Assembly (NCBI GenBank): GCA_040797665.1
Contig: JBFNER010000020.1
Span: 9,124 to 73,123 of the forward strand
Source of the DNA: Neobacillus sp.
GTDB taxonomy: Bacteria; Bacillota; Bacilli; Bacillales; Cytobacillaceae
Reading direction: 5' to 3'
Length of the DNA: 64,000 bases
The notes beneath the pieces are model-generated. The model did no database searches and had not been told where the DNA came from. It worked only from the letters and a program-made list of their open reading frames with translations. Every line of letters begins with the position of its first letter. Position 1 is the first letter of the stretch. Of the stretch, positions 1 through 45,007 are shown one piece after another. A program made the translations under genes and the position numbers.

Positions 1-330
1 TACGTTGTTGATTCAGGAAACCAAAGAGTCCAAGTATTTAATAAAGATGGAGAGTTCGTAAGCATTATTAATGGCTCAAAAGGCGGAGGCGGTTCAGCTT
101 TTGTAAATCCGAGGGGAATTGGTATTGACCAACGAGGGATTATCTATGTTGTAAGCAATCTAACCCATATTATTTATGGATTTAACCAAGAGGGTAATCA
201 AGTATTTCAATTTGGATCAATGGGAGAGGCTAATGGCCAGTTCTATTTACCAAACGGATTGTTTATTGATGAAAAAGACAACGTCTATATTACAGATACA
301 CTAAACCAAAGGGTTTCTGTATTTAAGTAG
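1..330 (+). CDS. NHL-repeat beta-propeller protein, C-terminal fragment (5' end lies outside the window)
   Basis: Frame 1 is open from base 1 to TAG 328-330. The translation YVVDSGNQRVQVFNKDGEF...GQFYLPNGLFIDEKDNVYITDTLNQRVSVFK shows repeated NHL-type units (VxDxxNxRVxVF ... GxFxxPxGi). Confidence 0.75.
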   Translation, partial: YVVDSGNQRVQVFNKDGEFVSIINGSKGGGGSAFVNPRGIGIDQRGIIYVVSNLTHIIYGFNQEGNQVFQFGSMGEANGQFYLPNGLFIDEKDNVYITDTLNQRVSVFK

Positions 331-467
331 AGATACAACAAATTTATATATTAAAGGGGGTGGTTGATAGAAAGATAAATTGATTGCATAGATTTCCCAT
401 TATATGAAATACCTAGACAATTAAAAAAGAGAGAAAAAAGAGAGAGATTTATTGGGAGGTTTTAAGA

Positions 468-2144
468 GTGAAAAAATTTAGTTTTAGTCTAATATTTGCA
501 ATGTTGCTCCTTAGCATGTTTGCTGTAGTAGCCTCGGCGGAATTTGATAACGAAGAAGCTAATCTGCCGATTACAGTTGAGAATGCAAATCCAAATGCTA
601 ATAAAACAACTGAAGGTATCAATACAAACGACGGCTCAACATTTGGTAGTGTTATCAAGTCCGAAGATATGAGAGATAATCACGGTGTGCAAGGTGACCA
701 AAAAACTCACGGATCTTACCAAAATAACACTAACGCTTGTGCAAGCTGTCACCAAACACATACATCAAAAGCTAGACAGTTATTATTTGCTGATAGCACC
801 TATAATACTTGTACAGCATGTCATGACGGTACATTAGGTTTTTACAATGTATTTGAAAATGGAGAAGATTATTTTAACTCCGGATCTACTGCTGGAACAT
901 TTGGCGGTACACATTCTGGGAACATGAGTGTTCACTTATCTACAGGAGCAGTTCAAGTTAAAGCTGCACCAGGTGGAAATAAAACGTCTACTGACACAGC
1001 TTCATGGGGCGGTTCTTTTACTTGTGCTAGCTGCCATGCTCCACACGGATCTTACAGCAGCCGTTTATTACATTACAACCCGGCCAACATGGGGAACACA
1101 GCACCTGAACTAGGTGGAAATAAAGCAGTTAAAATTGATGTTGTTAATTATGCTGATCGTAACACAGGTGTGTCTGCAACTTCTGATAAATTCAGAGCGG
1201 TTAGAGCCACAAAGGCTGAACATGCTTTAACTGATGCTAAATATGATAGTATCCCGGTAGATGCAGTTATCATTATGGTTTATGAGAAAAACTCTGGTAA
1301 TACTGCTTATGCAAAAACAACAAATCCATGGTTATATGGTTATAGTTCAACATCAAATGGCCGAAACTATCAATCACGACTATTTACAGTAACCAAAGAT
1401 CAAATTAGTACAGTATTAAATGCTGATGGCACAATTAAAGGTTATGTTGCAGCAAACGATTATACAAATGCAGTCATTGACCAAAACGATTATAAGAATG
1501 GTGCAGGTATATTAGCATTTAAATATGACAAAGGTCTAGTTTATGCAAAAACAGATGAAGGAAAAGCATTACTAAATAGTGCACTTTCAGCTGATATCGG
1601 ACGTGCTTATGCTGTAACATTAAAACTTGATGCTGTACCTGGTGCAGTTTCTGATGTTGTAACCAAGCATGATGTTTCTGCATTATGGGCTTCTGGTGGA
1701 AACGGTCCTCAAGTATCTCAATGGTGTTCTACTTGTCATACTGACTACCTATTCTCTTCAAGTTGGAATGGTGCTACAAGTAAGCATGGCAACTATAATA
1801 GTGAAAAGTATTATGGACATACAACAAGTAGTGCAACATATACTTGCTTACGCTGTCACTTTGCACACGGTACTGATGTTGAAATCATGGTAGATGGAGA
1901 TGGAGCTACTATTCATGATTTACAAAAACCAACAACTGAAACATTAGGTAAAGGCTGGACAGAAGAGGTAGCAAAAGATTATATGCTTGACAGGAACCCT
2001 TCTTCAGCACTTAAGAAGTTCACTAACATGTCTGGATGTTGGGCTTGTCATAACAGCTCTAAGGCTGCATCATTGAAGAATACAAACCGTGATGAACTTC
2101 ACCCAGATGGTATGATCCCTGATCCATCTACCAAAAAGTATTAA
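468..2144 (+). CDS. Secreted hexahaem c-type cytochrome (6 CxxCH), OmcS-like motif order
   Basis: GTG start 8 nt after GGGAGG. Signal peptide MKKFSFSLIFAMLLLSMFAVVASA. Motifs are CASCH, CTACH, CASCH, CSTCH, CLRCH and CWACH. All 12 cysteines lie in CxxCH motifs. Doubled-CXXCH pattern CxxCHxxH...CxxCHDG is present. Confidence 0.85.
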   Translation: MKKFSFSLIFAMLLLSMFAVVASAEFDNEEANLPITVENANPNANKTTEGINTNDGSTFGSVIKSEDMRDNHGVQGDQKTHGSYQNNTNACASCHQTHTSKARQLLFADSTYNTCTACHDGTLGFYNVFENGEDYFNSGSTAGTFGGTHSGNMSVHLSTGAVQVKAAPGGNKTSTDTASWGGSFTCASCHAPHGSYSSRLLHYNPANMGNTAPELGGNKAVKIDVVNYADRNTGVSATSDKFRAVRATKAEHALTDAKYDSIPVDAVIIMVYEKNSGNTAYAKTTNPWLYGYSSTSNGRNYQSRLFTVTKDQISTVLNADGTIKGYVAANDYTNAVIDQNDYKNGAGILAFKYDKGLVYAKTDEGKALLNSALSADIGRAYAVTLKLDAVPGAVSDVVTKHDVSALWASGGNGPQVSQWCSTCHTDYLFSSSWNGATSKHGNYNSEKYYGHTTSSATYTCLRCHFAHGTDVEIMVDGDGATIHDLQKPTTETLGKGWTEEVAKDYMLDRNPSSALKKFTNMSGCWACHNSSKAASLKNTNRDELHPDGMIPDPSTKKY

Positions 2145-2197
2145 AAAAGCTAAAGATTAGCGGCAACTAATCTTAGCTAAAAGGGAAATGAGAATTT

Positions 2198-2234
2198 AGT
2201 ATAAGGTGTTATGCTCAGCATAGCACCTTATACT
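2198..2234 (+). terminator. Long hairpin downstream of the hexahaem gene (possible intrinsic terminator)
   Basis: agtataaggtg (2198-2208) pairs perfectly with caccttatact (2224-2234). The trailing T-tract is weak. Confidence 0.4.
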
Positions 2235-2334
2235 CATTTCTAGATAATCCTAATGCTAATGAAAAGTGAGATTAATCGTCAAATAATATGATTACATTTT
2301 TACATTGATAATATTATATATCCACTATATTCAC

Positions 2335-2350
2335 TGTAAAATACGTCACA
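2335..2350 (+). promoter_or_regulatory. Crp/Fnr-type box candidate TGTAA-N6-TCACA (alternatively a TAAAAT -10 element)
   Basis: TGTAAAATACGTCACA matches TGTGA-N6-TCACA with one mismatch. The 10-mer TGTAAAATAC recurs at 2471-2480, so the assignment is ambiguous. Confidence 0.25.
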
Positions 2351-2412
2351 TTTAACTAAGCCAAATCATTATATATTTGACATTTATATATGAATATTTG
2401 TTGAATTATCAG

Positions 2413-2441
2413 GTTAACTACTAGTACCCCCAATAGTTAAC
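2413..2441 (+). promoter_or_regulatory. Leader hairpin about 68 nt upstream of the nonahaem cytochrome start
   Basis: GTTAACTA (2413-2420) and TAGTTAAC (2434-2441) form a perfect 8-bp stem with a 13-nt loop. Confidence 0.3.
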
Positions 2442-2508
2442 ATTTAAAATATTATTATAAGACTGTCATGTGTAAAATACAGATTTTAAGAGAGAAGAGG
2501 GGTACTAA

Positions 2509-4824
2509 ATGAGACGAGGAGGACTCCTGCATAAAACGAAGGTACATATTCTTATTGTTTTTGTTTTATGTTTTCAATGGTTAGGATCCTACCATTTATT
2601 AAATATAACATCAGCTAATGATGAAGTCCCTGTTACTACAGAACCCAATTTAACGATTGATTCGCCGATAACAAATAGTGTCCTAGAGCAGACTACGATC
2701 AAAATTTCTGGGACTGCTCAAAACTTTTTAAGCGATGTATCCGTTATGATCATAAGCGGGTCAAAACAATTCGGTCCAGTGGGAGTAAAAGATGGAACTT
2801 GGAGCATTGAGGTGGACTTACAAACAGTTGGTACTCATAGTTTCTATGCTGTAGCTTCAGACTCTGATGGGACGCCTTTTAATTCGAATGTTATTCAAGT
2901 AACCATTGTAACTCCGACAGACACAACACCTCCAGAGGTCACTTTTGTTTTACCAGTGGAAGGCGCAATTACCAAGTATCCTTCTATTGAAGTTACAACC
3001 GAACCGTTTTCGAGGGTTGAATTTTGTATCAATTGTACAGAGCTTAACGGGTTAGTAACAGGAGATTGGAAATCAATTCCTGCAAACAGTGATGGGAAAT
3101 GGATATTGACAGACACAGGCTTACTAGATGGTAAACACACCATTTATGCAAGAGCAATTGATGCTGCTGGCAATGTTGGTCCTTATCAAAAGCGTACTTT
3201 TACTTTAGATAAAACCCGTCCTATCGTATCACCAAATGTATACCCGAAACAGGACATGACGCAGGTGCCGGTTGGTGTAGATACAAAAATAAAGGTTACG
3301 GTAATAGATTCAACATCCATTAAACTATCAGAAATCAACAAAAGCATTATAGTATCTAGTTCAAATGGTTCTCCTGTTTCTGGGAAAATTGAATATGATA
3401 ATAACACCAAACTACTTACTTTTACTCCAGAAAAAGAATGGGCTTATAGCACAAAGTACCATGTTATGGTTAGTCCGCTTGGGTTGATAGATGAGGCAGG
3501 CAATAATGCCTTTCCTCGGTTATGGTCTTTCACAACAGAAACTCGTCCAGGAGTAGTGGTTGACAACAAAAAACAGTATTCCTTGACCTATAACGGAGAA
3601 AATTTTCATCGTGAAAGTCCACATGCCATCTATGCTTCTAATGTGAACACTTGTGCAAATTGTCACAGTACTCACGTGGCGGGCAGCCCAAATTTATTGA
3701 ATCAGAGCAATGGGGCTGAACCCCAACCTAATAATAATCTATATGTAGATGATTATTGTATGGCCTGTCATGATGGAACCGTAGCACCAAAACATGAGAA
3801 TAGTGATAGTGCCAATAAGCATGATGCAGCAATCAGCAGCATTTCAGGAAAACCTAATGGCAGCTCCTGCTCTAGCTGCCATGATCCCCATGCGGATTGG
3901 TCAGAAGAAAATCCAAATTTAGCACAGGGGCATATTGTCTATACCCATACGGTTGAAAATCCTATTAATCCAGAAAAGCCGCGTGGACAGATTAGCTCAA
4001 AAGAATATATGTGTGAATCCTGTCACGAATCAGATAGTGCTAAGAAGATAAGGGAAGCTGTTGGATACATTGTTTATACACACAAAGTAGATAATCCTAT
4101 TGATCCAGAAAAGCCAACTGGAAAAATTAGCAGCAAGGACCAGACGTGTGAGTCATGCCATGAATCAGATCTTGATAAAAAGATAGAGGAAGCACTTTTT
4201 CAGGCAGGCACGGATGGTTATCGTCTCTTCCAATATAAAAAATCAACAACAGCTATTGGAATATATGAAGATTATGACCTTTGCCTTCGATGCCACAATC
4301 AAAGTTTTAAAACAAAATATGAGGCAACTCCAGATATAGGACAGTACTACAATTACTTGTCAAAAAAATATATTTATGACAATTTTGATAATGTAACGAC
4401 GTTTTCCAATCGTGATCTAACAACGGAAAAAACTAATTCTGGACATATCATAAAGGCACAGGATGGCAGCCTTTTAGCGGGACAGATTCCATGTGCAGAG
4501 TGTCATGATACCCATGGATCAAATAATATTAAACAGCTAAAAACTTTGATTGGACATGAAAACCCTAAGCCGTTTGAAGCACTTACCGGTGATTGGGATG
4601 CTGCTAAAGAAAGAGTGTTTTGTATAACATGTCATAACGGCGAGACAGGTATATATGGTATAACTGGTACAGCACTTTTTGATAAAACAACGGGAATAAC
4701 AATTGACCCAGCTAAAACGGGTCATAATAGAGACAATAAAGAAGCATGTTCGAAATGCCACAGCAATAACGGTTCATTTATTGAAGCGGCACATTCTCCA
4801 AAGAGGATAAAAGTACTGCCGTAA
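2509..4824 (+). CDS. Nonahaem c-type cytochrome with N-terminal signal/anchor and Ig-like stalk domains
   Basis: ATG follows AGAGGGG. A hydrophobic N-terminus is followed by about 330 aa of Ig-like (Big/SbsA-like) sequence. Nine CxxCH motifs follow (CANCH, CMACH, CSSCH, CESCH x2, CLRCH, CAECH, CITCH, CSKCH). Confidence 0.85.
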   Translation: MRRGGLLHKTKVHILIVFVLCFQWLGSYHLLNITSANDEVPVTTEPNLTIDSPITNSVLEQTTIKISGTAQNFLSDVSVMIISGSKQFGPVGVKDGTWSIEVDLQTVGTHSFYAVASDSDGTPFNSNVIQVTIVTPTDTTPPEVTFVLPVEGAITKYPSIEVTTEPFSRVEFCINCTELNGLVTGDWKSIPANSDGKWILTDTGLLDGKHTIYARAIDAAGNVGPYQKRTFTLDKTRPIVSPNVYPKQDMTQVPVGVDTKIKVTVIDSTSIKLSEINKSIIVSSSNGSPVSGKIEYDNNTKLLTFTPEKEWAYSTKYHVMVSPLGLIDEAGNNAFPRLWSFTTETRPGVVVDNKKQYSLTYNGENFHRESPHAIYASNVNTCANCHSTHVAGSPNLLNQSNGAEPQPNNNLYVDDYCMACHDGTVAPKHENSDSANKHDAAISSISGKPNGSSCSSCHDPHADWSEENPNLAQGHIVYTHTVENPINPEKPRGQISSKEYMCESCHESDSAKKIREAVGYIVYTHKVDNPIDPEKPTGKISSKDQTCESCHESDLDKKIEEALFQAGTDGYRLFQYKKSTTAIGIYEDYDLCLRCHNQSFKTKYEATPDIGQYYNYLSKKYIYDNFDNVTTFSNRDLTTEKTNSGHIIKAQDGSLLAGQIPCAECHDTHGSNNIKQLKTLIGHENPKPFEALTGDWDAAKERVFCITCHNGETGIYGITGTALFDKTTGITIDPAKTGHNRDNKEACSKCHSNNGSFIEAAHSPKRIKVLP
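3928..4197 (+). repeat. In-frame tandem duplication, 2 x 135 bp (45 aa), each copy carrying one CESCH haem site
   Basis: Unit 1 is GHIVYTHTVENPINPEKPRGQISSKEYMCESCHESDSAKKIREAV. Unit 2 is GYIVYTHKVDNPIDPEKPTGKISSKDQTCESCHESDLDKKIEEAL. Confidence 0.9.
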
Positions 4825-4827
4825 GGG

Positions 4828-4857
4828 AACGAGAGTGAAAACTCTCGTTTTTTTTTT
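4828..4857 (+). terminator. Rho-independent terminator of the nonahaem cytochrome gene
   Basis: aacgagagt-gaaa-actctcgtt followed by a T9 run. Confidence 0.85.
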
Positions 4858-4952
4858 GCTTTTCCTATTAACAAGAGTGTTAAATCAATAATGAGATTGA
4901 TGTCAAGAGAAATTCATTTTTATGGTTATTTTGTCTTAAGAGTTAACAGATT

Positions 4953-4993
4953 TGTAACAAATTACAGGTAATTATACCTGAGTAAAATGTTAC
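4953..4993. promoter_or_regulatory. Cluster of three short palindromes upstream of the octahaem cytochrome gene (candidate operator)
   Basis: TGTAA-CAAA-TTACA (4953-4966), CAGGTA-ATTA-TACCTG (4965-4980) and GTAA-AATG-TTAC (4982-4993). Confidence 0.3.
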
Positions 4994-5075
4994 ATTAAAA
5001 GAGATAAAAAGGGATAATTTGGTAATTTATAATATTGTTATAGTGATAAAGTATTTTAATAGTAGTGATTAAAAT

Positions 5076-5115
5076 AAGACCTAAATACTCAATTCAGAAG
5101 GTCTTTTTTATTATT
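5076..5115 (+). terminator. Terminator-like hairpin inside the leader of the octahaem cytochrome gene (possible attenuator)
   Basis: AAGACCT (5076-5082) pairs with AGGTCTT (5099-5105), followed by TTTTTATTATTT. It lies about 80 nt upstream of GTG 5196. Confidence 0.35.
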
Positions 5116-5195
5116 TACCAAAAAAAAGGGGGCTTGATGAATGAAAACATAAATATTTTTTTCTATAAAAAAAATTAGAGAAGGAGGCACAAAAA

Positions 5196-7142
5196 GTGTC
5201 CGAAAAATGGGGAAGTTATAGGTTAAGAACGAAACAAATCATTATTCTATTTTTAGTAATTTCTACTGCAATTGTACTCAGCACCTTCATGGTCTCGGCG
5301 TCAGATACTTATTACTCAAGTTACTACCCAGCTAAGAACTCCACTTTGGCCGTTTCAAACACAAAAGTTACAGTTAATATTAAAAGTGTTAATGAATTGA
5401 ATAGTTCCAGTGTTTTACTTAAGGTGAACGGCGAGCCAGTTCAAGCATCTTTCGTTCCTAAAAGCAATACAGGGGGCAAGGAAGGTACAATCAGTTATAA
5501 TGCAACCAATCTTAAGGATGGTGTTAACACTATTGAAGTAAGGATGAGTGACAAAGCAGATCCACCAAACCTGTTTAGTGATTCTTGGACATTTACCGTT
5601 GCAGAACCGCCAAAGATTTTAGATGTGACTCCTGCTAACAATAGTGAACAGGCTACCTTAAATCAAATTTCTGCTGTTGTAACGGATAATAGTGGAATCA
5701 ATTGGAATACAGCTCTACTTAAAATAAATAATGTGGTAAAGGGCCCGCTGGAGATTAACAAGGAAACCGGAACCATTACCTATACTAATTCCTTTCCGAC
5801 AGGAACCCATACTGCTCTTTTAGAAATAACTGATAGTTATGGAAAAAAGGCAACTAAGACTTGGAGATTCATTGTGGATTCTGCTCCACCTGAAATTAGT
5901 TATCTAAATTATTTCAAAGATGGCATGACCATTACAGATGGTCCACTCAAGATTAGTATGGGGCTAAGGGATTTAGTGGACATCAAGGAAAATGTAACTC
6001 TAAAATTAAACGGAGAAATACTGCCAATTAATTTTCAATATCAAGGATATTATTATTATGGGGAGTATATTGTCACATCTAAAAAAACAGCAACCTTAAC
6101 ATATGAGAAAATGCTACCAAACGGTGCTCAAACACTAGAATTATTTATGGAAGATATTTTTGGGAATCATACCACTCGCAAATTTAATTTCACTGTTGCA
6201 TTAAAGCCAAAGATTTCTGAAGTAACACCGCTGAAATATGGTGAAGAAAATTTAAGACCTACGATTTCAGCTGTGGTAACATCCCCAAATGGTTCGATTA
6301 ACCCTGATTCCATTGCTGTAAAGGTGGATAACGAAGAGGTTGATTTTAATTTTGACCAAAATAAGGGGCTAATAAGTTATACGCCATCAAAGGACTTAAA
6401 AAATGAAAGCTACCATACAGTTAATATTTCGGTAGCCGACCAAACAGGGCTCTCTTTAGTTAGAGAGTGGAAGTTCTATTCCAATACTTATACCGAAATG
6501 GATGATTCTAACCCTGAAGTTTGTACAACATGCCATGATGCTTCAAGCACAGGTGGTACTAATGGGGTTCTGGAGAATGTCCATAAAGCAAAATTAAGCT
6601 TTAGTGGAACGCATGTACAAAACAACTGTGAAAATTGTCATAAATATATAACCGCTGATGCTGGGTGCAGTCAATGTCATGATGACCCTGAAGGTGATGA
6701 TTACAAGTATGCTCCGCACGGGTCTACACCAACCATCCACTATCAGGCTACAAACTTTGATCCAAATTCGCCGATTCGGGTGGCGGTTAACCGATCCATG
6801 AACGATTGTATCCTTTGTCACCAGCCGGGATCTTTGATTAAGGGATATCAAGGCTATCAAACGACACCTACAAGAACACTTAGTAATCACGATATTCCTG
6901 AACTCCACAAAACCGAAGATACCTGTACGGAGTGTCACGCAAAGTCACTTACTCGTGAACACGCCAGGGAAGATAGAACAGATAAAAATAATAACCCGAT
7001 TACATGTAACACATGTCACCAAAGTACTGATACTATGGTAGTAACAGCTATCAATGAAAAGAATACATCTTGTAAGGCATGTCATGAGCCGCATAAAGAT
7101 GTACACAGCGATTGTAAAAAATGCCATGTTAATAGTTATTAA
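5196..7142 (+). CDS. Octahaem c-type cytochrome with N-terminal signal/anchor and multiple Ig-like domains
   Basis: GTG starts 8 nt after AAGGAGG. A hydrophobic N-terminus is followed by about 400 aa of repeated Ig-like modules. Eight CxxCH motifs sit in the last ~210 aa (CTTCH, CENCH, CSQCH, CILCH, CTECH, CNTCH, CKACH, CKKCH). Confidence 0.85.
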   Translation: MSEKWGSYRLRTKQIIILFLVISTAIVLSTFMVSASDTYYSSYYPAKNSTLAVSNTKVTVNIKSVNELNSSSVLLKVNGEPVQASFVPKSNTGGKEGTISYNATNLKDGVNTIEVRMSDKADPPNLFSDSWTFTVAEPPKILDVTPANNSEQATLNQISAVVTDNSGINWNTALLKINNVVKGPLEINKETGTITYTNSFPTGTHTALLEITDSYGKKATKTWRFIVDSAPPEISYLNYFKDGMTITDGPLKISMGLRDLVDIKENVTLKLNGEILPINFQYQGYYYYGEYIVTSKKTATLTYEKMLPNGAQTLELFMEDIFGNHTTRKFNFTVALKPKISEVTPLKYGEENLRPTISAVVTSPNGSINPDSIAVKVDNEEVDFNFDQNKGLISYTPSKDLKNESYHTVNISVADQTGLSLVREWKFYSNTYTEMDDSNPEVCTTCHDASSTGGTNGVLENVHKAKLSFSGTHVQNNCENCHKYITADAGCSQCHDDPEGDDYKYAPHGSTPTIHYQATNFDPNSPIRVAVNRSMNDCILCHQPGSLIKGYQGYQTTPTRTLSNHDIPELHKTEDTCTECHAKSLTREHAREDRTDKNNNPITCNTCHQSTDTMVVTAINEKNTSCKACHEPHKDVHSDCKKCHVNSY

Positions 7143-7176
7143 TGGATGTTTTGCATAATCTTCTAATAAGTAATCC

Positions 7177-7210
7177 AACGAGAGGGAATACTCCTCTCGT
7201 TTTTGTTTTG
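7177..7210 (+). terminator. Rho-independent terminator of the octahaem cytochrome gene
   Basis: aacgagagg-gaatact-cctctcgtt followed by TTTTGTTTT. Confidence 0.8.
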
Positions 7211-7409: not shown

Positions 7410-7439
7410 TTGAAATTCCCACGCAACTCAGGCTATAAT
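7410..7439 (+). promoter_or_regulatory. Candidate sigma-A promoter of prfB
   Basis: TTGAAA (7410-7415), an 18-nt spacer, then TATAAT (7434-7439). Confidence 0.5.
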
Positions 7440-7507: not shown

Positions 7508-8609
7508 ATGGAATTAGCAGAAATTCGTAATGAACTTGAGAAAACAGCTAAAAAATTAGCGGACTTTAGGGGGTCTCTTTGACCTAGAGAATAAAGAAGC
7601 CAGGATTGCTGAGCTTGATGATACGATGCTTCATCCTGACTTCTGGAATGACCAGCAGGCAGCACAGATTGTAATCAGTGAAGCAAATGCCTTGAAGGAC
7701 CAGGTAAATGAGTTTAAGGATTTATTCGAAACGTTTGAAAATCTTGAAGTGTCCTACGAGTTAGTTAAAGAAGAAAGTGATGCTGAGCTTCAGGCTGAAC
7801 TAGAGGATGAACTCAAAAGGCTTACAACACGTTTAAGTGACTTCGAGCTTCAACTGCTCCTAAGTGAAGAATATGATAAACATAATGCCATACTAGAGCT
7901 GCATCCTGGTGCAGGTGGAACAGAGTCACAGGACTGGGGTTCCATGCTTCTCCGAATGTATACACGTTGGGCGGAGAAGAAGGGCTTTAAGGTGGAAACA
8001 CTTGATTACTTACCAGGGGATGAAGCTGGGATTAAAAGTGTAACCTTAGCGATTAGAGGTCACAATGCTTACGGTTACCTAAAGGCTGAAAAGGGCGTAC
8101 ACAGGCTAGTTAGGATTTCACCATTCGATGCTTCAGGACGTCGTCATACATCCTTCGTATCCTGTGAAGTCATGCCTGAATTTAATGATGAAATTCAAAT
8201 CGAGGTTCGTACAGAAGATTTGAAAATTGATACGTACCGTGCCAGCGGGGCTGGAGGACAGCATATCAATACAACAGATTCAGCCGTCAGGATTACTCAC
8301 ACGCCAACTGGAGTTGTTGTTACCTGTCAGTCTGAGCGTTCACAGATCAAAAACCGTGAAGCCGCGATGAAAATGCTGAAGGCAAAGCTTTATCAACGCG
8401 AAATCGAGCAGCAGGAAAAAGAGTTGCTCGAAATTCGTGGTGAGCAAAAGGAAATCGGCTGGGGAAGCCAGATTCGCTCTTACGTCTTTCATCCATATTC
8501 GATGGTCAAAGACCACCGAACTAGTGCTGAAAGTGGAAACGTCCAGGCCGTAATGGACGGAGAACTAGATATGTTTATCGACGCTTACCTGCGTTCTAGA
8601 ATATCTTAA
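7508..8609 (+). CDS. prfB: Peptide chain release factor 2, expressed via programmed +1 frameshift: join(7508..7579,7581..8609)
   Basis: ATG 7508 opens a 24-codon ORF ending CTT TGA C (TGA 7580-7582). The +1 frame continues into an RF2 body with SPF and GGQ motifs. Total length is about 366 aa. Confidence 0.95.
7568..7583 (+). promoter_or_regulatory. prfB +1 frameshift site (internal SD-like AGGGGG plus CTT TGA C slippery/stop context)
   Basis: The sequence AGGGGGTCTCTTTGAC matches the conserved RF2 autoregulatory frameshift cassette. Confidence 0.9.
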
Positions 8610-9748: not shown

Positions 9749-10078
9749 ATGAAAAACAAGCTGCTTAAAATGTTAGTGGGTGTTGGTCTTGTCATGGGCT
9801 TAGCTGCATGCGGTGGTGGCGGTGACGATACTGCTAGCGGTGGAACGGATTCAGCTCATGCGGATGCTGAAAAGATCTACAATCAAAAGTGCTCAAGCTG
9901 TCACGGCGACAATCTTAAAGGTGGAATGGGTCCTGAATTAACAGCGGTTGGGGCAAATTATTCACAAGATGAAATTGCTGATATCATTCAAAATGGTACT
10001 CAAGGCGGTATGCCAGCGGGTCTTATTTCTGGAGATGACCTTGACAAAGTAGCTGAATGGTTAGCAACTAAAAAGTAA
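9749..10078 (+). CDS. cccB: Cytochrome c-551, lipoprotein, monohaem
   Basis: Lipobox LAAC, a single CSSCH, a distal Met region (GGMPAG), 109 aa. The position is syntenic. Confidence 0.9.
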
Positions 10079-17189: not shown

Positions 17190-17725
17190 TTTAAGAAAAG
17201 ATAAATCATATAGCTTATGACAAGCACTACTAGTAATCCAATTTGCCATTCGGTTTTAAATTGGAGGACCTTGTGTACAGAATAAGCCTCAATTAATAAA
17301 GAGGGGATTTTGCCCACTGTACTAGCGATGCTAAATGAAATGATTCCCATTTTGCTAATTGCAGCTGCTAGTGTAACTGCTCCAGAAGGAACAAAAGGTA
17401 GAACTCTTAGGACGAGAACCAAAAATATTCCCTCTAGATTCTCAGTGGATTTGAGCTTAGCTACAAGTCTATTCTTTGATTGTAATTTTTCAGTTAGTTT
17501 ACTTAGTCCCTTCCGATACAGAATAAAACTGATAATGGCGCCCGCTGCTTCCCCAATAATTGAAACCATTAATCCATTGCTAAAACCAAAAAAAGTAATG
17601 TTCCATGCTGTAAGAAAAGCACTTGGAACGACACCTGAAATCGCAATTAGGATATTAAGAATGACACTGATAAACAATGCAGTTGTTGTATTTAGAGGAA
17701 TCCATTGAGGGATGAAATTTTCCAT
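17180..17725 (-). CDS. TVP38/TMEM64 (DedA-related, SNARE-associated) family membrane protein
   Basis: VLRVLPFVPSGAVTLAAAISKM-type motif. The likely start is MENFIPQW (17725), preceded by AAAGGAA. The ORF track extends to 17770. Confidence 0.7.
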   Translation of the reverse strand: MENFIPQWIPLNTTTALFISVILNILIAISGVVPSAFLTAWNITFFGFSNGLMVSIIGEAAGAIISFILYRKGLSKLTEKLQSKNRLVAKLKSTENLEGIFLVLVLRVLPFVPSGAVTLAAAISKMGIISFSIASTVGKIPSLLIEAYSVHKVLQFKTEWQIGLLVVLVISYMIYLFLKKK

Positions 17726-17943
17726 TTTTATATTCCTTTCAATCGTTGATCTCCTATCCATAATCCGCAAATAAGCCTGTATTGTAAATAAAAAGTTTGC
17801 AGATTCTATGGATTTCGAAAAAAATTAAATGATAACTAACAAAGCTTAGTATTAAATGTTTTGATTTTCTTCATAATTTCTCGATTTTTTTAGGTTATGA
17901 TGTTAGTAAAAATTAAACTTCAAAGTTTTGAAGGAGAAAGTTA

Positions 17944-19332
17944 ATGAAGCGGTTTATTCAAATAAAAAGTATATCTGTAAAGCTCGGTTTACTGTTAAGT
18001 GGTGTTTTTACCTTTTTACTCCTTATCCTTGGAACCATATTATACGTAGTTTTTACGAATTTATTTGTGAATTATATTAATCAGGACTTGCTTGAGAGAG
18101 GTATCAATCATGCGAATGTTTTAGAACGTCAGTTTAATCAGGAAACCATTGAACATGTTATTAGTATGGAGAAAAATGTAACAACGAAGGTATTAGTTAT
18201 AGATGTTGAACAAAACATATTGGCTTCCTCGTCTACTCCTGACCGAGATATGATTGATCACTTATTACCCAAGAACATGAAATTATCTAATGGATTATTG
18301 TTAGAAGATGATTGGCGAGAGCATGATTACATGATTACCGTTTCACCGATTGGAACAAATAAGGGTTTTGTGTATATGTACTATCCAGCAAACATACTTA
18401 AAGAAATAGTAAATGTTTTGAATGTTCTAATGCTAGTGGTTAGCATCGGAATTGTACTACTTGCATTTGGATTCATTGGAATCCTATCTAAAAAACTCGC
18501 ACAACCACTTCTAATGATGAGGGATGCAACGAATAAAATGTCATTGGGAAAATATGAGCAAAAAATACCTGTAAGTGGTAAGGATGAAATTGCTCAGTTA
18601 GGAACATCAATCCAGTCGCTAGGAGAACAACTCCAATTCTATGAAAATAGCAGAAATGATTTTCTTGCAGCTGTTTCACATGAACTTCGTACACCACTAA
18701 CATATATAAAAGGATATAGCGATATCCTTAACAAAGACATGGTTAAAAATTCTGATGAACAGAGGGAGTATCTTAAGATTATTAATAAAGAGGCAACACG
18801 AATCTCCGTCCTAGTCAATGACTTATTTGAATTAAGCAAACTGCAAGTAGGCCGTTATGAACTGGTGAAAGAGTGGACGGATGTTAACCATGTGATTGAA
18901 AAAGTGATTTCCAATCTTAAACCAGCGGTTTTAAAAAAGGGATTAAGGTTTAATGTTAGTCTCCAGCCTGTCCCGAAGATTCATATAGATGAAAAGAGAA
19001 TGGAGCAGGTTATTTACAATTTAGTTGAAAATGCAATGAAATATACGAATGAAGGTGGAATTACGATTCACTCAGCTATAGAAAAAGAGATTGTCATGGT
19101 AAGGATAAGCGATACGGGAATTGGAATACCAGAATCTGATCTTCCTAAAATATGGGAACGTTTTTATCGTGTCGATCAATCTAGAACAAGAAAAACGGGT
19201 GGTACAGGGATTGGGTTATATGTAGTAAAGAAGATTATTGAATCACATGGTGGTGAGGTTACGGTTACAAGTATTGAAAATGAAGGGACTACCTTTACCA
19301 TTTTTTTAACTAATAACTTTAGTGGTAATTAG
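17944..19332 (+). CDS. Sensor histidine kinase (2 TM, extracytoplasmic loop, HAMP, HisKA, HATPase_c)
   Basis: H-box SHELRTPL, N-box NLVENAMKYT, G-boxes DTGIGI and GTGIGL. Confidence 0.9.
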   Translation: MKRFIQIKSISVKLGLLLSGVFTFLLLILGTILYVVFTNLFVNYINQDLLERGINHANVLERQFNQETIEHVISMEKNVTTKVLVIDVEQNILASSSTPDRDMIDHLLPKNMKLSNGLLLEDDWREHDYMITVSPIGTNKGFVYMYYPANILKEIVNVLNVLMLVVSIGIVLLAFGFIGILSKKLAQPLLMMRDATNKMSLGKYEQKIPVSGKDEIAQLGTSIQSLGEQLQFYENSRNDFLAAVSHELRTPLTYIKGYSDILNKDMVKNSDEQREYLKIINKEATRISVLVNDLFELSKLQVGRYELVKEWTDVNHVIEKVISNLKPAVLKKGLRFNVSLQPVPKIHIDEKRMEQVIYNLVENAMKYTNEGGITIHSAIEKEIVMVRISDTGIGIPESDLPKIWERFYRVDQSRTRKTGGTGIGLYVVKKIIESHGGEVTVTSIENEGTTFTIFLTNNFSGN

Positions 19333-19343
19333 GAGAGAAGTAC

Positions 19344-20015
19344 ATGAAAATATTAATTGTTGATGATGAGATGGAAATGAGGCTGCTATTACGATTATAT
19401 TTGCTGCAAGAGAACTACTTAGTGGATGAAGCGGAAAATGGAAGAGAAGCTCTGTCAAAAGTGGCAAAAGGTCGTTATGATTTAATGCTTTTAGATGTGA
19501 TGATGCCGGAAATGGACGGATGGGAAACGATTGATCAGGTCAGGAAGATTTCGGATATTCCTGTCATTATGTTGACAGCAAAAGGTTCGCTTATGGATAA
19601 GGTAACTGGGTTATCTAGGGGAGCAGATGATTATTTAGTAAAACCATTTGAAGTAGAGGAACTATTAGCGAGGATTCAGGCAATTATTCGTAGGTCCCAG
19701 CCGAATGAGATAAGTGATCAAATTCTAAAATATAAAGGAATTCTTTTAAATCTTAGTGCGCGTAGTGCGATGTATCTGGATAAAAAGATTAACCTTACTC
19801 AGACGGAATTTGACTTATTAGAAGTATTTTTTAAACATAAAGGAAAGGTGCTTTCTAGAGAGCAGCTAGTTGAGATCGTTTGGGGGTTAGAGTTTGCAGG
19901 AGAAGATCGGACAGTTGACTCTCATATTCGAAACCTTCGAGATAAGTTGAAATTCGCTGGGATAGAATGGCCATTGATTAAGACCGTCTGGGGAATAGGA
20001 TATAAGGTAGAATAA
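19344..20015 (+). CDS. OmpR/PhoB-family response regulator
   Basis: Receiver domain (DDE...D...LTAK) plus a winged-helix output domain (TVDSHIRNLRDKL ... GIGYKV). Confidence 0.9.
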   Translation: MKILIVDDEMEMRLLLRLYLLQENYLVDEAENGREALSKVAKGRYDLMLLDVMMPEMDGWETIDQVRKISDIPVIMLTAKGSLMDKVTGLSRGADDYLVKPFEVEELLARIQAIIRRSQPNEISDQILKYKGILLNLSARSAMYLDKKINLTQTEFDLLEVFFKHKGKVLSREQLVEIVWGLEFAGEDRTVDSHIRNLRDKLKFAGIEWPLIKTVWGIGYKVE

Positions 20016-23795: not shown

Positions 23796-25160
23796 ATGGC
23801 AATGCCTGAGAAAAAACTAAGACCAGAAAAGGAACCTTTTGACCTTCTGTCTATTCCGCTGGTTAAAAAATTTGTAAAAAGTAAATGGTATCCCGGAATC
23901 TTTCAATGGATGGTTATTTTTGTATTTTCGGTTATTGTGTTTGAATTGGTAATGGGAACGGTAAATCCGAGTAAAAACTTTGGAACAACAATGACTTGGG
24001 TGTTATGGTGGCCGATTATCCCTATTTTATTTCTAGTAGCGGGTCGTTTCTGGTGTGCAATCTGTCCTTTTGGCAAGCTAAGCGACATCATCAGAAAAAC
24101 AATTGGTGCAAATCGCCCAATGCCTAAGTTTCTAAGAAGATATGGAATATGGTTAATTGATTTATTCTTTATCGCCATTACATATAGTGACCACGTGTGG
24201 GGAATTGTAGAATCGCCACGCGGATCAGGTTACTTGTTGCTGCTATTAGTTACAATGGTTGTCGCAACTTCTGTTTTTTATGAAAGAAGAACATTTTGTA
24301 AGACGCTTTGCTTCCTTGGCGGTCTTGCCGGGAACTATGCGCGTTCTGGAGCCGTAAAAGTACAGGCAACACCAGATATTTGTAAAACCTGTAAGGTTCA
24401 ATCATGCTACAAAGGAACGGAGAAAGTAGAAGGATGTCCGATGTTCCAATTTCCAAGAACAATGGAATCTAGTGCTGAATGCAATATATGTGCAAACTGT
24501 GTGAAAAACTGTCCGTATAACTCGATTAAAATCACAACTCGAGTTCCGACAAAAGAATTATGGGGCTTAAAGAATCCAAAGCTTGAGCATGCTTCCTTAG
24601 CAGCGGTAATTATGGGAATCGTGTTCGTACAAAACATTACCATGCTTGAACCATGGCAGGATATATTAAATGCAATCGGAACGGTTACTGGTACCTCAAA
24701 CTACACTGTCAACTTCACCATCGCTTTTATCATTGCAATGGCGATTCCAATTCTATTATTATTAGGAACTGCAAAAATAGCTTCATCCTTCGGTATGGAA
24801 GGTACAGTTAAAAAGAACTTTACTCGGTTTGGATACGCGATTATTCCTTTAGATCTTGCAGGTCACTTAGGTCACAATCTTTTCCATATCTTCACCGAGG
24901 GTAAAGCAATTTGGTATAACTCAATTGGTTTGTTTGGAGTTCAATCGAATCCTGGCAGCCTGAGTCTTGCCTCAACCCCAACTGTTCAAATGATTCAGTA
25001 TGCGATAATTGTTATTGGACTGATCGGTACAACTTATGTGACGTATAGAATGGGTAAGAACTCATCATTTAAAGCAATGCTCCCATACTATGTACTCATG
25101 TTTGCACTAGCAATTGCTAATATTTATCTATTCTCACTGCCTATGAGTCACAGAGTATAA
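23796..25160 (+). CDS. Integral-membrane polyferredoxin (NapH / CcoG / YccM-like, two 4Fe-4S motifs) with an extra C-terminal TM bundle
   Basis: FWCAICPFG and FCKTLCFLGG membrane-proximal Cys motifs. CKTCKVQSC...GCP and CNICANCVKNCP ferredoxin motifs. About 9-10 TM segments. Confidence 0.75.
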   Translation: MAMPEKKLRPEKEPFDLLSIPLVKKFVKSKWYPGIFQWMVIFVFSVIVFELVMGTVNPSKNFGTTMTWVLWWPIIPILFLVAGRFWCAICPFGKLSDIIRKTIGANRPMPKFLRRYGIWLIDLFFIAITYSDHVWGIVESPRGSGYLLLLLVTMVVATSVFYERRTFCKTLCFLGGLAGNYARSGAVKVQATPDICKTCKVQSCYKGTEKVEGCPMFQFPRTMESSAECNICANCVKNCPYNSIKITTRVPTKELWGLKNPKLEHASLAAVIMGIVFVQNITMLEPWQDILNAIGTVTGTSNYTVNFTIAFIIAMAIPILLLLGTAKIASSFGMEGTVKKNFTRFGYAIIPLDLAGHLGHNLFHIFTEGKAIWYNSIGLFGVQSNPGSLSLASTPTVQMIQYAIIVIGLIGTTYVTYRMGKNSSFKAMLPYYVLMFALAIANIYLFSLPMSHRV

Positions 25161-41918: not shown

Positions 41919-42118
41919 AATTCTAGAATATATCTATGAATTTGTAAATAAGAATATGACTTTTTTAGATTTTTTGACAAATTTATGAGACCTGTTAACA
42001 CAGAATTTTTTCCCTGATTTTTGCAATGATTTCTATTAAATTGGTAATAGTATAAAATCTTGTTTGATGCTATGATAGTTTTGCAATATAGATAGATTAT
42101 TTAGGGGGATTGTTTTAT

Positions 42119-45007
42119 TTGAAAGCGGTTGGCCGTTTATTATTAGCTTTTCTTATCATTTTCTCTGCTGTGGGACCATATCTAGTTGGAAAAACCGTTC
42201 AGGCTGAAACAGTTAATACACCAATAAGTCTCGGGTTTACCCCACATGACACAGCAATTGACCCAAACCAACCTGTCGTTTATATGACGAAGCTTGGCAG
42301 TAAGACATTGTATGCAGTTAATTTTTCTACTGGAGCAATTAAAACACTAACATTACCATATCCAGCAGAGAGACTAGACATTCGAAACAACAAGCTTTAT
42401 GTAACTCAGCATAAAATGAGCCATGATTACTACAATTTCGGCCCTTATACAGGAGCGATTGCCGAAATTAATACAGATACTTTCACGGTAAGCCAGGTTT
42501 TAGACATTACTGCAGATCCCTTTGATATCGCAGTTGATGACAAAGGCTATATTTATATTTCCCCTGGTTCAGGTCAGCATGGAAAACTAACCGTTTATTC
42601 TATGACAGAAAAAAAGGAAATAACTCAAAATTCTTTAAGTACAACCCTTTACGCTAGAAGCAATATCTATTTCAATACTGAGACATCAAAGATTTATGCT
42701 AACGATACTACAGGTAGTCCACTAGATATCAAAGGATATGAAGTGGTAAATGGTGTGATCCAAAATAACTATGACTCACCTTATCATGGTGATTATGCTA
42801 TCGGGATAGCAGGAAAAATATCTCCTGATGGCTCGTATATGTACAATAATGGCGGCTATGTATTTAATCTCGCAACCTATAGATCTGGAGATATGACTTT
42901 CCATACTTCTTTTGGAAAAAAATATAACGATTATGAGTTCAGTGAGCAGCTTCAGTTGACATTTGCAGCTAGTGCAACCACTGGAATTGATGTATATCAA
43001 TATGGTACAAACACCTTTTTATATTCATTAAGAAAAGATCTGGCTGTGCAAAAGCTTCATATTCAAAATGGGGTATTGGTTGCAATTAGTAAGAATACCG
43101 CTGGGAGTTACTTTCTAGAAACTTTTAGTGCTGCTTCACAGCCAACCTCAGGCTTGCCAGAAAACCCTGGTATTCCTGATCCAGTTGGTACGCTGAAAAA
43201 TCTTGGATTTAAACCGAATGATGCAGTGATTGATCCCAATCTACCAATCATCTATATGACAAAATTGGGGAGTAAGACGATTTACGCTGTCAATTTTGTT
43301 TCAGGAGAAATTAAGGCACTAGCCTTACCGTATCCTGCAGAGCGACTAGAGTTATACAATGACCGACTTTATGTCACCCAGCACAAAATGGCACATGAGT
43401 ATTACACAACGAAACCATTAGTCGGAGCCATTGCTGAGGTTGATACAACATCCTTTACAGCAACTAAAATTATCGATGTGGATACAGATCCATATGATAT
43501 TGCAATTGATGAGAATGGCTATATTTATATTGCTCCAGGCTCAAACCAGTGGGTAAATATGAAAATATATTCGTTAGCCACAGGTGGAGAAGTACCTGCT
43601 GGTTACACTGCTCAAATGCGAGCATGGTCATATCTCTATTATAATACTGAAACATCAAAGGTGTATTCCATTGATACGGATACTAGTCCAAGAGATGTCG
43701 ATGCTTATGAAGTAAGTAATGGAACGATAAAAGCACACTATGATTCACCTTATCATGGTGACTATCCGCTAGAGCCATTTGCAAAAATCACCCCAGATGG
43801 CTATAGCATGTATAATAACAGCGGCGTAGTTTTTGATTTGGCCATGTATCGATCGGGTGACCTGACTTACACCTTTACATTAGGCAAGAAGTACAATGAT
43901 TATGAGTTCAGTCTACAGCAGGAATTGACCTTTGCTGCTCGAACAGACGGTGGAATTGATGTATATCAATATAATACAAGAAACTACCTGTATACCATCA
44001 GAACGGATCTGACTGTAGAAAAGCTTTATTATCAAGATGGGCAGTTAATTGCGATTGGTATCGATTCAAATGGTCGATATTTTATTGAAGGTATTGATGA
44101 GAATACGGAAGGAATCCCAGAGGATCCGTCTACGCCAACTGATCCTGAAGAGCCAGGGACTCCAACTGATCCTGAAGATCCAGTCACTCCAGAAGAGCCT
44201 ATATCAATCGAATTCATTGACGCTATTTCTTTATGGTGGGATTGGGACGGAGAGTACTATTACGAAGAATTATTTAACGGAGTAAAGGATGTTTCCTTAG
44301 ATAGTATTTTTGTTTTAGGTTTTGACAATTTAGTAGAAGTAATGGATGAAACCCTAATTACGCTGAAAGGCCCTGAGGGAAATGTCGAACTTTATAGTGG
44401 GGCAGAAGAGGATACCTTAACAATTGTTCCCTATCTTCTGAATGGTAGTACAACCTATACCTTAACCGTAAAAAAAGAAGCTATATCGAACTTAGCAAAC
44501 GATGTTGTCATCCAGTTTACGACAGCTTCAAACTGGGAGTACTATGATGGCATTTGGTATTATTATGATCCCTCTATCGGTGACTATGTTACTGGCTGGA
44601 AGGATGTAGCAGGTGTAAGGTACTATTTCAACGAAAATGGTGAAATGCAAACTGGCTGGGAGAAGATTAATAACGTTTGGTACTACTTTACCGGCAGCGG
44701 TGCAATGAAAAAGGGCTGGCTCTTAGATGGAGGCAGTTGGTATTATTTGAATGCCAATGGCTCGATGAAAACAGGCTGGCTGTATACTGGCGGCCAATGG
44801 TACTATTTAACTTCAAGCGGTGCAATGAAGACTGGCTGGTTAAAGCTAGGCACGACGTGGTATTATTTATCCACTAGTGGAGCTATGAAAACAGGCTGGC
44901 AACTAGTAGGGAAAAACTGGTATTACTTCTATAGCAGCGGAGCTATGGCCTACAATATAACAATTGGCGGGTACAAGCTCGGAGCAAGCGGTGCATGGAT
45001 TAAGTAG
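42119..45007 (+). CDS. Large secreted wall-associated protein: two ~320-aa paralogous propeller-like modules, Pro/Glu/Thr linker, Ig-like domain, C-terminal choline/cell-wall-binding repeats
   Basis: A TTG at 42119 (alternative 42110) follows AGGGGGA. Signal peptide ...GKTVQA. See the repeat features below. Confidence 0.8.
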   Translation: MKAVGRLLLAFLIIFSAVGPYLVGKTVQAETVNTPISLGFTPHDTAIDPNQPVVYMTKLGSKTLYAVNFSTGAIKTLTLPYPAERLDIRNNKLYVTQHKMSHDYYNFGPYTGAIAEINTDTFTVSQVLDITADPFDIAVDDKGYIYISPGSGQHGKLTVYSMTEKKEITQNSLSTTLYARSNIYFNTETSKIYANDTTGSPLDIKGYEVVNGVIQNNYDSPYHGDYAIGIAGKISPDGSYMYNNGGYVFNLATYRSGDMTFHTSFGKKYNDYEFSEQLQLTFAASATTGIDVYQYGTNTFLYSLRKDLAVQKLHIQNGVLVAISKNTAGSYFLETFSAASQPTSGLPENPGIPDPVGTLKNLGFKPNDAVIDPNLPIIYMTKLGSKTIYAVNFVSGEIKALALPYPAERLELYNDRLYVTQHKMAHEYYTTKPLVGAIAEVDTTSFTATKIIDVDTDPYDIAIDENGYIYIAPGSNQWVNMKIYSLATGGEVPAGYTAQMRAWSYLYYNTETSKVYSIDTDTSPRDVDAYEVSNGTIKAHYDSPYHGDYPLEPFAKITPDGYSMYNNSGVVFDLAMYRSGDLTYTFTLGKKYNDYEFSLQQELTFAARTDGGIDVYQYNTRNYLYTIRTDLTVEKLYYQDGQLIAIGIDSNGRYFIEGIDENTEGIPEDPSTPTDPEEPGTPTDPEDPVTPEEPISIEFIDAISLWWDWDGEYYYEELFNGVKDVSLDSIFVLGFDNLVEVMDETLITLKGPEGNVELYSGAEEDTLTIVPYLLNGSTTYTLTVKKEAISNLANDVVIQFTTASNWEYYDGIWYYYDPSIGDYVTGWKDVAGVRYYFNENGEMQTGWEKINNVWYYFTGSGAMKKGWLLDGGSWYYLNANGSMKTGWLYTGGQWYYLTSSGAMKTGWLKLGTTWYYLSTSGAMKTGWQLVGKNWYYFYSSGAMAYNITIGGYKLGASGAWIK
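42230..44100 (+). repeat. Internal duplication of a ~300-aa module (period 972 nt)
   Basis: LGFTPHDTAIDPNQPVVYMTKLGSKTLYAVNFSTGAIKTLTLPYPAERLDIRNNKLYVTQHKM... is paralleled by LGFKPNDAVIDPNLPIIYMTKLGSKTIYAVNFVSGEIKALALPYPAERLELYNDRLYVTQHKM.... Confidence 0.85.
44135..44200 (+). repeat. 27-bp tandem repeat encoding the TPTDPEEPG / TPTDPEDPV / TPEEP linker
   Basis: ccaactgatcctgaaga occurs at 44135 and 44162. Confidence 0.8.
44531..45004 (+). repeat. Seven to eight ~20-aa cell-wall/choline-binding (CW_binding_1-type) repeats
   Basis: Reiterated GW..(G)..WYY(L/F)..SGAMKTGW units. Confidence 0.8.

Follow-up and report, generated by a model that had tools for sequence, protein, structure and literature searches.

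The window analyzed here is a 64,000-nt stretch of Neobacillus sp. (GCA_040797665.1, contig JBFNER010000020.1, 9,124-73,123 of the forward strand), and it opens inside a cluster of multihaem cytochrome c genes of which it covers only the distal half, the left part lying beyond base 1. Together with the overlapping public contig L082, the window revealed a full cluster of seven genes with 45 CxxCH haem-attachment motifs, bounded by secA and prfB in the order secA (divergent), NNT1, NNT2, TPR, NHL, A, B, C, prfB. NNT1 and NNT2 encode membrane-anchored NapC/NirT-type multihaem proteins, TPR a tetratricopeptide repeat (TPR) protein, NHL an NHL-repeat protein, A a secreted hexahaem cytochrome, and B and C multihaem proteins with immunoglobulin (Ig)-like stalks. 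We proposed that this cluster exports respiratory electrons across the cell wall, that is, that it serves extracellular electron transfer (EET), a reading to which we give a probability of about 0.6. The cluster is a putative and apparently undescribed Gram-positive cytochrome-based EET system, widespread in a clade of common soil bacilli. In the literature searched, no paper described it in Neobacillus, Mesobacillus or Anaerobacillus; the nearest account was that of Gavrilov et al., who mention in passing "bacillary hexahemes", to which no function was assigned, among the relatives of Carboxydothermus SmhB, a protein upregulated on soluble Fe(III) (ferric citrate) (PMC7829351).

An initial annotation of the window had described three plus-strand open reading frames (ORFs) with 6, 9 and 8 CxxCH motifs, and the same coordinates and counts were recovered for A, B and C. 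These 23 motifs lie within 6.7 kb, as against just 8 CxxCH in six frames of the rest of the 64 kb (1 in cccB, 3 inside uvrA and 4 others), a concentration far beyond chance. No CxxCK or CxnCH variant motif occurred in A, B or C, and no further multihaem ORF was found in the window or in L082.

The left flank was obtained from L082, a 13.9-kb contig (run SRR29088061) that was retrieved by exact look-up of protein B; exact look-ups with protein A, in both start variants, retrieved no public contig. The final 4863 bases of L082 are identical to positions 1-4863 of the window, with 0 mismatches, and thus L082 gives the flank of the same genome. The NNT1, NNT2, TPR and NHL proteins have one N-terminal hydrophobic helix apiece, and their genes abut or overlap, as genes of an operon would. 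The part of the NHL protein encoded in the window matched the Pfam NHL family (E = 3.5e-11) and also the DUF5128 6-bladed propeller. As first annotated, the propeller gene ends shortly before A with no terminator in between, and the spacer showed no significant structure (fold z = +0.69).

By its family profile and its haem-motif pattern, A is a member of an OmcS-related Firmicutes hexahaem family and a remote homologue of OmcS, the nanowire cytochrome of Geobacter sulfurreducens (6EF8). OmcS was the top PDB match of the A family profile (E = 4.3e-4), and comparison of the A family with the OmcS sequence by hhalign gave a probability of 86.6% with E = 4.5e-6 over 89 columns. Both proteins have six CxxCH motifs (at residues 91, 115, 186, 420, 460 and 524 in A), and the flanks of motifs 1, 3, 4 and 5 are collinear between them: CASCHQTH in A and CEGCHTMH in OmcS at haem 1, APGG..CASCHAPHGSY and APGG..CSSCHDPHGKY at haem 3, VSQWCSTCHTD and MSEWCANCHTD at haem 4, and CLRCHFAH and CLSCHRAH at haem 5. 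In an alignment of 36 homologues, all six CxxCH motifs of A were invariant, as were six additional histidines (H81, H98, H156, H193, H451 and H467). With this complement the six haems of A could all be bis-His ligated, which would suit electron transfer over catalysis. H98, at position +3 of the haem-1 motif, has a counterpart in OmcS, which we take to be His16. In OmcS, this histidine ligates a haem of the neighbouring subunit (PMC9473688). The earlier suggestion that A might be a haem polymer fits the remote homology and the shared motif pattern; polymerization of A is, in our estimate, a tentative possibility.

A also differs from OmcS in being 150 residues longer, in having a beta-rich insert between haems 3 and 4, and in its monoderm host. 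In the AlphaFold model the insert (approximately residues 203-393) reached predicted local distance difference test (pLDDT) scores of 83-97 in places, and a Foldseek search with the model returned no PDB match at E <= 0.001, the insert being without a structural match. Nothing significant was found when A, B and C were each searched as single sequences against the PDB. The A family is large: 541 matches were found in 90% clusters, and against 1.84 billion representatives its profile collected 189, 335 and 872 members at E <= 1e-30, 1e-10 and 1e-3, respectively. Some A homologues carry a C-terminal SH3_3 domain (P0007, P0010, P0013 and P0016) or fn3 domain (P0009, P0066, P0070 and P0080), a possible sign that these homologues are attached to the wall or surface; the A of the window has neither an SH3 nor an fn3 domain.

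B and C are predicted to be surface proteins. The Ig-like modules that had been read as stalks of haem carriers were borne out by Pfam in both proteins (Big_13 and Big_5 in B, Big_13 in C) and by the AlphaFold model of C, in which residues 40-430 formed four beta-sandwich domains with pLDDT >90 that matched multi-Ig/cadherin ectodomains. In B, the haem-bearing half matched the Pfam pentahaem domain Mtrc-MtrF_II-IV_dom (PF22113) at 61.8 bits against a cut-off of 30. Among 25 homologues, 8 of the 9 haem motifs of B were invariant or nearly so, and conserved histidines sufficed for all haems. The exception to the family pattern arises from an internal tandem duplication of two 45-codon units with 73% nucleotide identity (protein local alignment score 178): each unit bears one CESCH, which gives B nine haems instead of the usual eight of the family. 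The family alignment shows no conservation of the haem at residue 547, and the Thermincola counterparts of B have 8 haems. Tandem Repeats Finder missed this duplication at the DNA level; it was seen at the protein level. B had 85 homologues, approximately 70 of them full-length, nearly all from Neobacillus or Bacillus. B resembles MtrC, OmcA and MtrF of Shewanella in its domain II/IV pentahaem module and its predicted surface exposure; unlike them, it has one such module rather than two and 9 haems (8 in its family) rather than ten, and it has Ig-like stalks in place of the beta-barrel domains I/III, without a lipoprotein form or a porin partner.

All eight CxxCH motifs of C were invariant among 21 homologues, and only 33 homologues were found in all. 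The closest comparison for C was with the Ig multihaem proteins of Dethiobacter alkaliphilus (the DealDRAFT_1439 group): C and WP_008516181.1 share 39% identity over 643 aa (E = 9e-144), a similarity that spans both the Ig repeats and the haem domain. In published proteomics, the abundance of WP_008516181.1 on ferrihydrite was 10-fold that on thiosulfate (q = 0.006; PMC10376724). The genes of this Dethiobacter group likewise lie in clusters that encode NHL and TPR proteins together with a CymA-like cytochrome. In contrast to C, the Dethiobacter proteins are approximately 1035 aa long with extra Ig repeats and more haems, and their host is an obligately anaerobic natronophile.

These components allow an electron path to be drawn. 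NNT1 and NNT2, anchored in the membrane and bearing 10 and 12 haems, would draw electrons from menaquinol; the secreted hexahaem A would relay them across the peptidoglycan, possibly as a stacked polymer; and the Ig-like stalks of B and C would hold the 9- and 8-haem domains off the membrane, from which electrons could pass to extracellular acceptors, with Fe(III) or Mn(IV) minerals, humics and electrodes as candidates. The membrane-anchored TPR and NHL proteins might serve as assembly or scaffold factors. The EET role put forward in the initial annotation gains from homology and context, from the full membrane-to-surface gene set and from the ferrihydrite-induced Dethiobacter homologue of C. 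The analysis shows gene content, haem motifs with conserved candidates for axial ligands, domain architecture, synteny and homologies; the wall location, the direction of electron flow, the acceptor and the polymerization of A are inferences.

Several observations weigh against this interpretation. The likeness of A to OmcS is weak and local (approximately 25% identity over the 89 aligned columns), and the AlphaFold model of A had a mean pLDDT of 55 with values <50 across all haem regions, which makes a fold comparison of the haem parts impossible. The haem domain of C was likewise poorly modelled (pLDDT <50), the Ig stalk alone being confident. No LPxTG motif was present in A, B or C, a Pfam search of the three proteins (E <= 1) found no SLH or other wall-binding domain, and the window encodes no OcwA-type or PdcA-type cytochrome. 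Two further points, the histidine count of C and the annotation of its Dethiobacter homologues, bear on particular alternatives.

The authors who described the Dethiobacter homologues of C labelled them MtoA-like, that is, Fe(II)-oxidizing (PMC10376724), and chains of bis-His haems are reversible in principle. The conduit might then run inward or in both directions, with Fe(II), reduced minerals, cathodes or partner cells as electron sources. We consider this unlikely: the homologue of C in Dethiobacter AHT1 rose 10-fold with ferrihydrite as the acceptor, NapC/NirT-type proteins are usually quinol dehydrogenases, and the best-studied relatives, those of Thermincola and Carboxydothermus, are reducers (PMC7911101, PMC7829351).

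C has seven well-conserved extra histidines for its eight haems, so that one haem, short of a conserved distal ligand, could be a binding or catalytic site. This feature would accord with a conventional reductase for a soluble substrate (nitrite, sulfur oxyanions, selenite or tellurite), in which B or C would be catalytic and the NapC/NirT-type proteins would act as the quinol dehydrogenase; donors of this type commonly feed periplasmic reductases, several Neobacillus species respire nitrate or nitrite, and weak sub-threshold matches to NrfB, NapB, ExtN and NrfA were obtained. Yet A, B and C contain no CxxCK or other active-site motif, and none matched NrfA, HAO, Otr or MccA at the curated cut-off. 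There are ligand candidates for six bis-His haems in A and enough conserved histidines in B, and enzymes of this kind lack Ig stalks and an OmcS-like hexahaem partner. We therefore hold such a reductase to be quite unlikely. For NrfA and HAO, the identities against which the initial annotation had set its own proposal, no family hidden Markov model reached its cut-off; with no active-site motif and no Pfam or NCBIfam family of such enzymes above cut-off, the reading of A, B or C as NrfA, HAO or another catalytic enzyme was rejected.

The cytochrome-based route nearest to the proposed EET path is that of Thermincola potens and T. ferriacetica, in which the chain comprises ImdcA (TherJR_1117), PdcA, CwcA (TherJR_1122) and OcwA, with CwcA modelled on OmcS (18% identity) as a wall-spanning polymer (PMC7911101). 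Both are Gram-positive chains that start from a membrane-anchored NapC/NirT-type decahaem protein and include a hexahaem that has been related to OmcS. In addition, Thermincola metagenome-assembled genomes (MAGs) contain loci with the same NNT, TPR, NHL, hexahaem order, in which the hexahaems are 36-39% identical to A. They differ in several respects: the Bacillaceae cluster has two NNT genes and Ig-stalked terminal proteins, neither the window nor L082 encodes a PdcA-like soluble decahaem protein, the profiles of B and C fail to match OcwA (6I5B) at E <= 1, and the hosts are Peptococcaceae in the one case and mesophilic Bacillaceae in the other. The end sequences of CwcA (Tfer_0075), taken from published primers, had no match in the collected loci and proteins; two metagenome scans for these ends returned nothing, or chance 16-mers without a haem ORF. 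The flavin-based EET system of Listeria (Ndh2/EetAB/PplA) has the same proposed purpose in a Firmicute, but its components are wholly different and include no cytochromes.

The distribution of the cluster was addressed in a scan of one genome per species, which yielded 103 loci; 80 of them were retained. Most of these are from Neobacillus, Mesobacillus, Anaerobacillus, Evansella, Pseudoneobacillus and "Bacillus sp."; the others are from Thermincola, Desulfosporosinus, Desulfitobacteriaceae, Dethiobacter and unclassified Bacillota, Clostridiales or Eubacteriales MAGs. Among 81 loci, 78 have an NHL gene directly ahead of the hexahaem gene, preceded in turn by TPR (76 loci) and NNT (75 loci). This core of NNT, an approximately 225-aa TPR protein, NHL and hexahaem recurs in known Gram-positive metal reducers, namely in Thermincola, Desulfosporosinus and Dethiobacter; in the Thermincola and Desulfosporosinus loci a 12-haem NNT, TPR, NHL and the hexahaem stand in this order, and the next gene, in the majority of the Thermincola loci and in Desulfosporosinus L008, encodes an Ig protein bearing 7-10 haems, often with further large multihaem genes. 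NHL and TPR genes beside multihaem genes have already been noted in Dethiobacter (PMC10376724), and NHL genes beside multihaem genes in Desulfovibrio ferrophilus and Tenderia (PMC5815863, bioRxiv 2022.05.06.490989).

In approximately 48 other Bacillaceae genomes, the cluster starts approximately 500 bp from a divergent secA. The proposal that the locus had been inserted between secA and prfB thus stood relative to B. subtilis but not as an oddity of one chromosome: the cluster is an addition at the secA-prfB junction, yet one that is fixed and widely shared in the clade, and comparison of relatives' genomes showed that it is not strain-specific, only the stretch from NNT2 to C looking exchanged. 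Likewise, the statement that cytochromes c of Bacillaceae are normally no more than mono- or dihaem proteins proved too general, because these other genomes also carry the cluster. The gene prfB follows the cluster in approximately 32 loci, as here, and lies beside secA, on its far side, in approximately 16 (on the opposite strand in L005, L007, L014, L016, L017, L020-L023, L044, L051, L057, L058, L066, L071 and L072); these two positions imply at least one inversion ending at this junction within the clade. The order prfB-yitT-cccB-ftsE-ftsX recurs, whole or in part, in 49 loci.

The genes within the cluster appear to have had different histories. When each protein of the window genome was compared with its counterparts in 49 Bacillaceae loci, the identity of NNT1 tracked that of secA (r = 0.90), and prfB, yitT and ftsE behaved likewise; the correlations with secA identity were 0.20 for NNT2, 0.01 for TPR, 0.09 for NHL, 0.06 for A and -0.05 for B. 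In the nearest genome, Bacillus sp. MRMR6, identity to the window genome was 98% for secA, 98% for prfB and 95% for NNT1, and fell to 53% for NNT2, 43% for TPR, 56% for NHL, 41% for A and 32% for B. Two other genomes show the converse: their A shares 74-77% identity with that of the window, with prfB at 95% and 82%. C was found in only four species-representative loci (L009, L011, L036 and L039), where it accompanies a different type of A. The GC content at third codon positions (GC3) was 0.36 in NNT1 and 0.23-0.33 from NNT2 to C, compared with 0.365 +/- 0.030 in 16 other plus-strand genes of the window. Identities unrelated to phylogeny, together with this GC3 drop, place a probable recombination breakpoint at the NNT1/NNT2 boundary. 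This pattern suggests that the stretch from NNT2 to C is a swappable cassette, of which deeply diverged versions have been repeatedly exchanged at a fixed site.

The low GC3 of NNT2 to C, and the internal duplication in B, could also be expected of silent or decaying remnants of an acquired island. We find this very improbable, however, since the seven ORFs are intact and have ribosome-binding sites (RBS), the haem motifs and ligand histidines are invariant over 21-36 homologues, and the cluster and a 75-nt block upstream of it are conserved in dozens of genomes. The hypervariability of the outer genes, typical for surface-exposed proteins, would also fit a surface redox role outside respiration, such as reductive iron acquisition, an electron store, or protection from oxidants or toxic metals; moreover, most carriers are facultative soil bacilli with no known record of dissimilatory metal reduction, and an Fnr box is not conserved upstream. 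Against this, 45 haems and two quinol dehydrogenases would be a heavy cost for assimilation, and relatives of the cluster are linked to energy-conserving Fe(III) respiration (PMC7911101, PMC10376724), which makes a non-respiratory role, in our view, decidedly unlikely compared with EET.

A bolder version of the EET proposal joins two claims: that A forms an OmcS-like wall-spanning wire, and that NNT2 to C recombine as a surface cassette whose diversity is maintained by selection, which might act through mineral or acceptor specificity or through pressure from phages and predators. We regard this combination as speculative and rather doubtful. If it were true, cytochrome-wire EET would be common and genetically accessible in Neobacillus and Mesobacillus, and no longer a rare trait seen in thermophilic Peptococcaceae.

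The route by which respiratory electrons pass through a Gram-positive wall is an open question. To our knowledge, Thermincola provides the sole cytochrome-based model for such a crossing, and its key wall protein CwcA has reportedly resisted purification. Many carriers of the cluster, among them N. niacini, N. drentensis and M. subterraneus, are cultivable and facultatively aerobic, and genetics, haem staining and electron cryomicroscopy should be feasible in them. Because dozens of genomes carry it, the locus is less exceptional than was first held; the finding is useful because tractable hosts allow tests of electron passage through the Gram-positive wall. It also corrects the common view of bacilli with mono- and dihaem cytochromes c alone, and points to a cassette-like diversification of outward-facing cytochromes. 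The features of the cluster and its borders are collected in table 1.

Table 1. Features of the multihaem cytochrome cluster and its flanks, with positions in contig L082 or in the window
Feature	Sequence	Position	Strand	Description
secA	L082	514-3027	minus	837 aa; strand opposite to the cluster
secA-NNT1 intergenic region	L082	3028-3504		477 bp, AT-rich
NNT1	L082	3505-4920		471 aa; 10 CxxCH; Pfam Cytochrom_NNT (NapC/NirT, PF03264)
NNT2	L082	4921-6150		409 aa; 12 CxxCH; PF03264, as NNT1
TPR protein gene	L082	6147-6851		234 aa
NHL protein gene, complete	L082	6854-7822		322 aa
NHL gene, 3' end	window	1-330	+	109 codons and stop; frame 1-327, stop 328-330
NHL-A spacer	window	331-467	+	137 nt; RBS GGGAGG at 454-459; no terminator
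Gene A	window	468-2144	+	secreted hexahaem cytochrome c, 558 aa; Sec signal ending in ASA, followed by EF
Two stable hairpins after A	window	2148-2240 (2148-2178, 2185-2240)	+	-12.1 and -28.0 kcal/mol; z = -3.9 and -7.9
Gene B	window	2509-4824	+	771 aa; N-terminal signal/anchor; Ig-like ~43-343; nine-haem C-terminal half
Tandem duplication in B	window	3928-4197	+	two 45-codon units, 3928-4062 and 4063-4197 (residues 474-563)
Intrinsic terminator after B	window	4823-4854	+	14-bp stem, then T-run; -18.9 kcal/mol; z = -4.4
Gene C	window	5196-7142	+	648 aa; N-terminal membrane helix; Ig-like 40-430; eight-haem C-terminal domain
Intrinsic terminator after C	window	7177-7201	+	10-bp stem, then T-run; -16 kcal/mol; right end of the cluster
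prfB	window	7508-8609	+	right-hand flank; promoter-like site 7410-7439 (TTGAAA, 18 nt, TATAAT)

Each of the three cytochrome genes in the window had been annotated with its own RBS, an AT-rich spacer and a terminator, and all of these were recovered apart from the terminator after A. The RBS of A, B and C are GGGAGG, AGAGGGG and AAGGAGG, respectively, and the spacers 3' of A and B measure 364 and 371 bp with a GC content of 25-27%. Neither of the two hairpins after A has a proper T-run, and the terminator scan called neither; it is possible that they are structures that end or stabilize the transcript.

Upstream of NNT1, approximately 4.1 kb to the left of window base 1, lies the conserved 75-nt block (L082 3402-3474; ATGAAAAATTATTCACAATTTGTACATTGG...TTAGAGAGGTTAA). 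It is nearly identical in 18 Bacillaceae genomes, with a variable spacer around it, and its reverse strand contains what we take to resemble a ResD-type TTGTGAA site. An Fnr box upstream of the cluster was considered and rejected because a site with <=1 mismatch was present in just 4 of 48 promoter regions. Rfam gave no family upstream of NNT1 (E <= 1) or across the window (gathering thresholds).

To the right of the cluster, prfB contains the canonical programmed +1 frameshift, CTT TGA C at 7577-7583, with AGGGGG ahead of it. The cccB gene lies at 9749-10078, in keeping with the 2.6 kb downstream given earlier. No ResB/CcsB-type or CcsA-type gene was found in the window; in Desulfosporosinus L008, two ORFs immediately after the cluster (17655-19662) resemble, by N-terminal sequence alone, cytochrome c maturation genes of the ResB/CcsB and CcsA types.

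The remainder of the window is an ordinary Bacillus-type chromosome with ftsEX, ctpB, germination genes, uvrBA and hisZ. At 23796-25160 it encodes a 454-aa protein with a Fer4_5 (4Fe-4S binding) domain, which adjoins a gene for a major facilitator superfamily transporter. At 42110-45007, just upstream of uvrB, it encodes a 965-aa protein with many choline-binding (cell-wall-binding) repeats, and a similar choline-binding repeat protein is encoded to the left of secA in the MRMR6 locus (L081).

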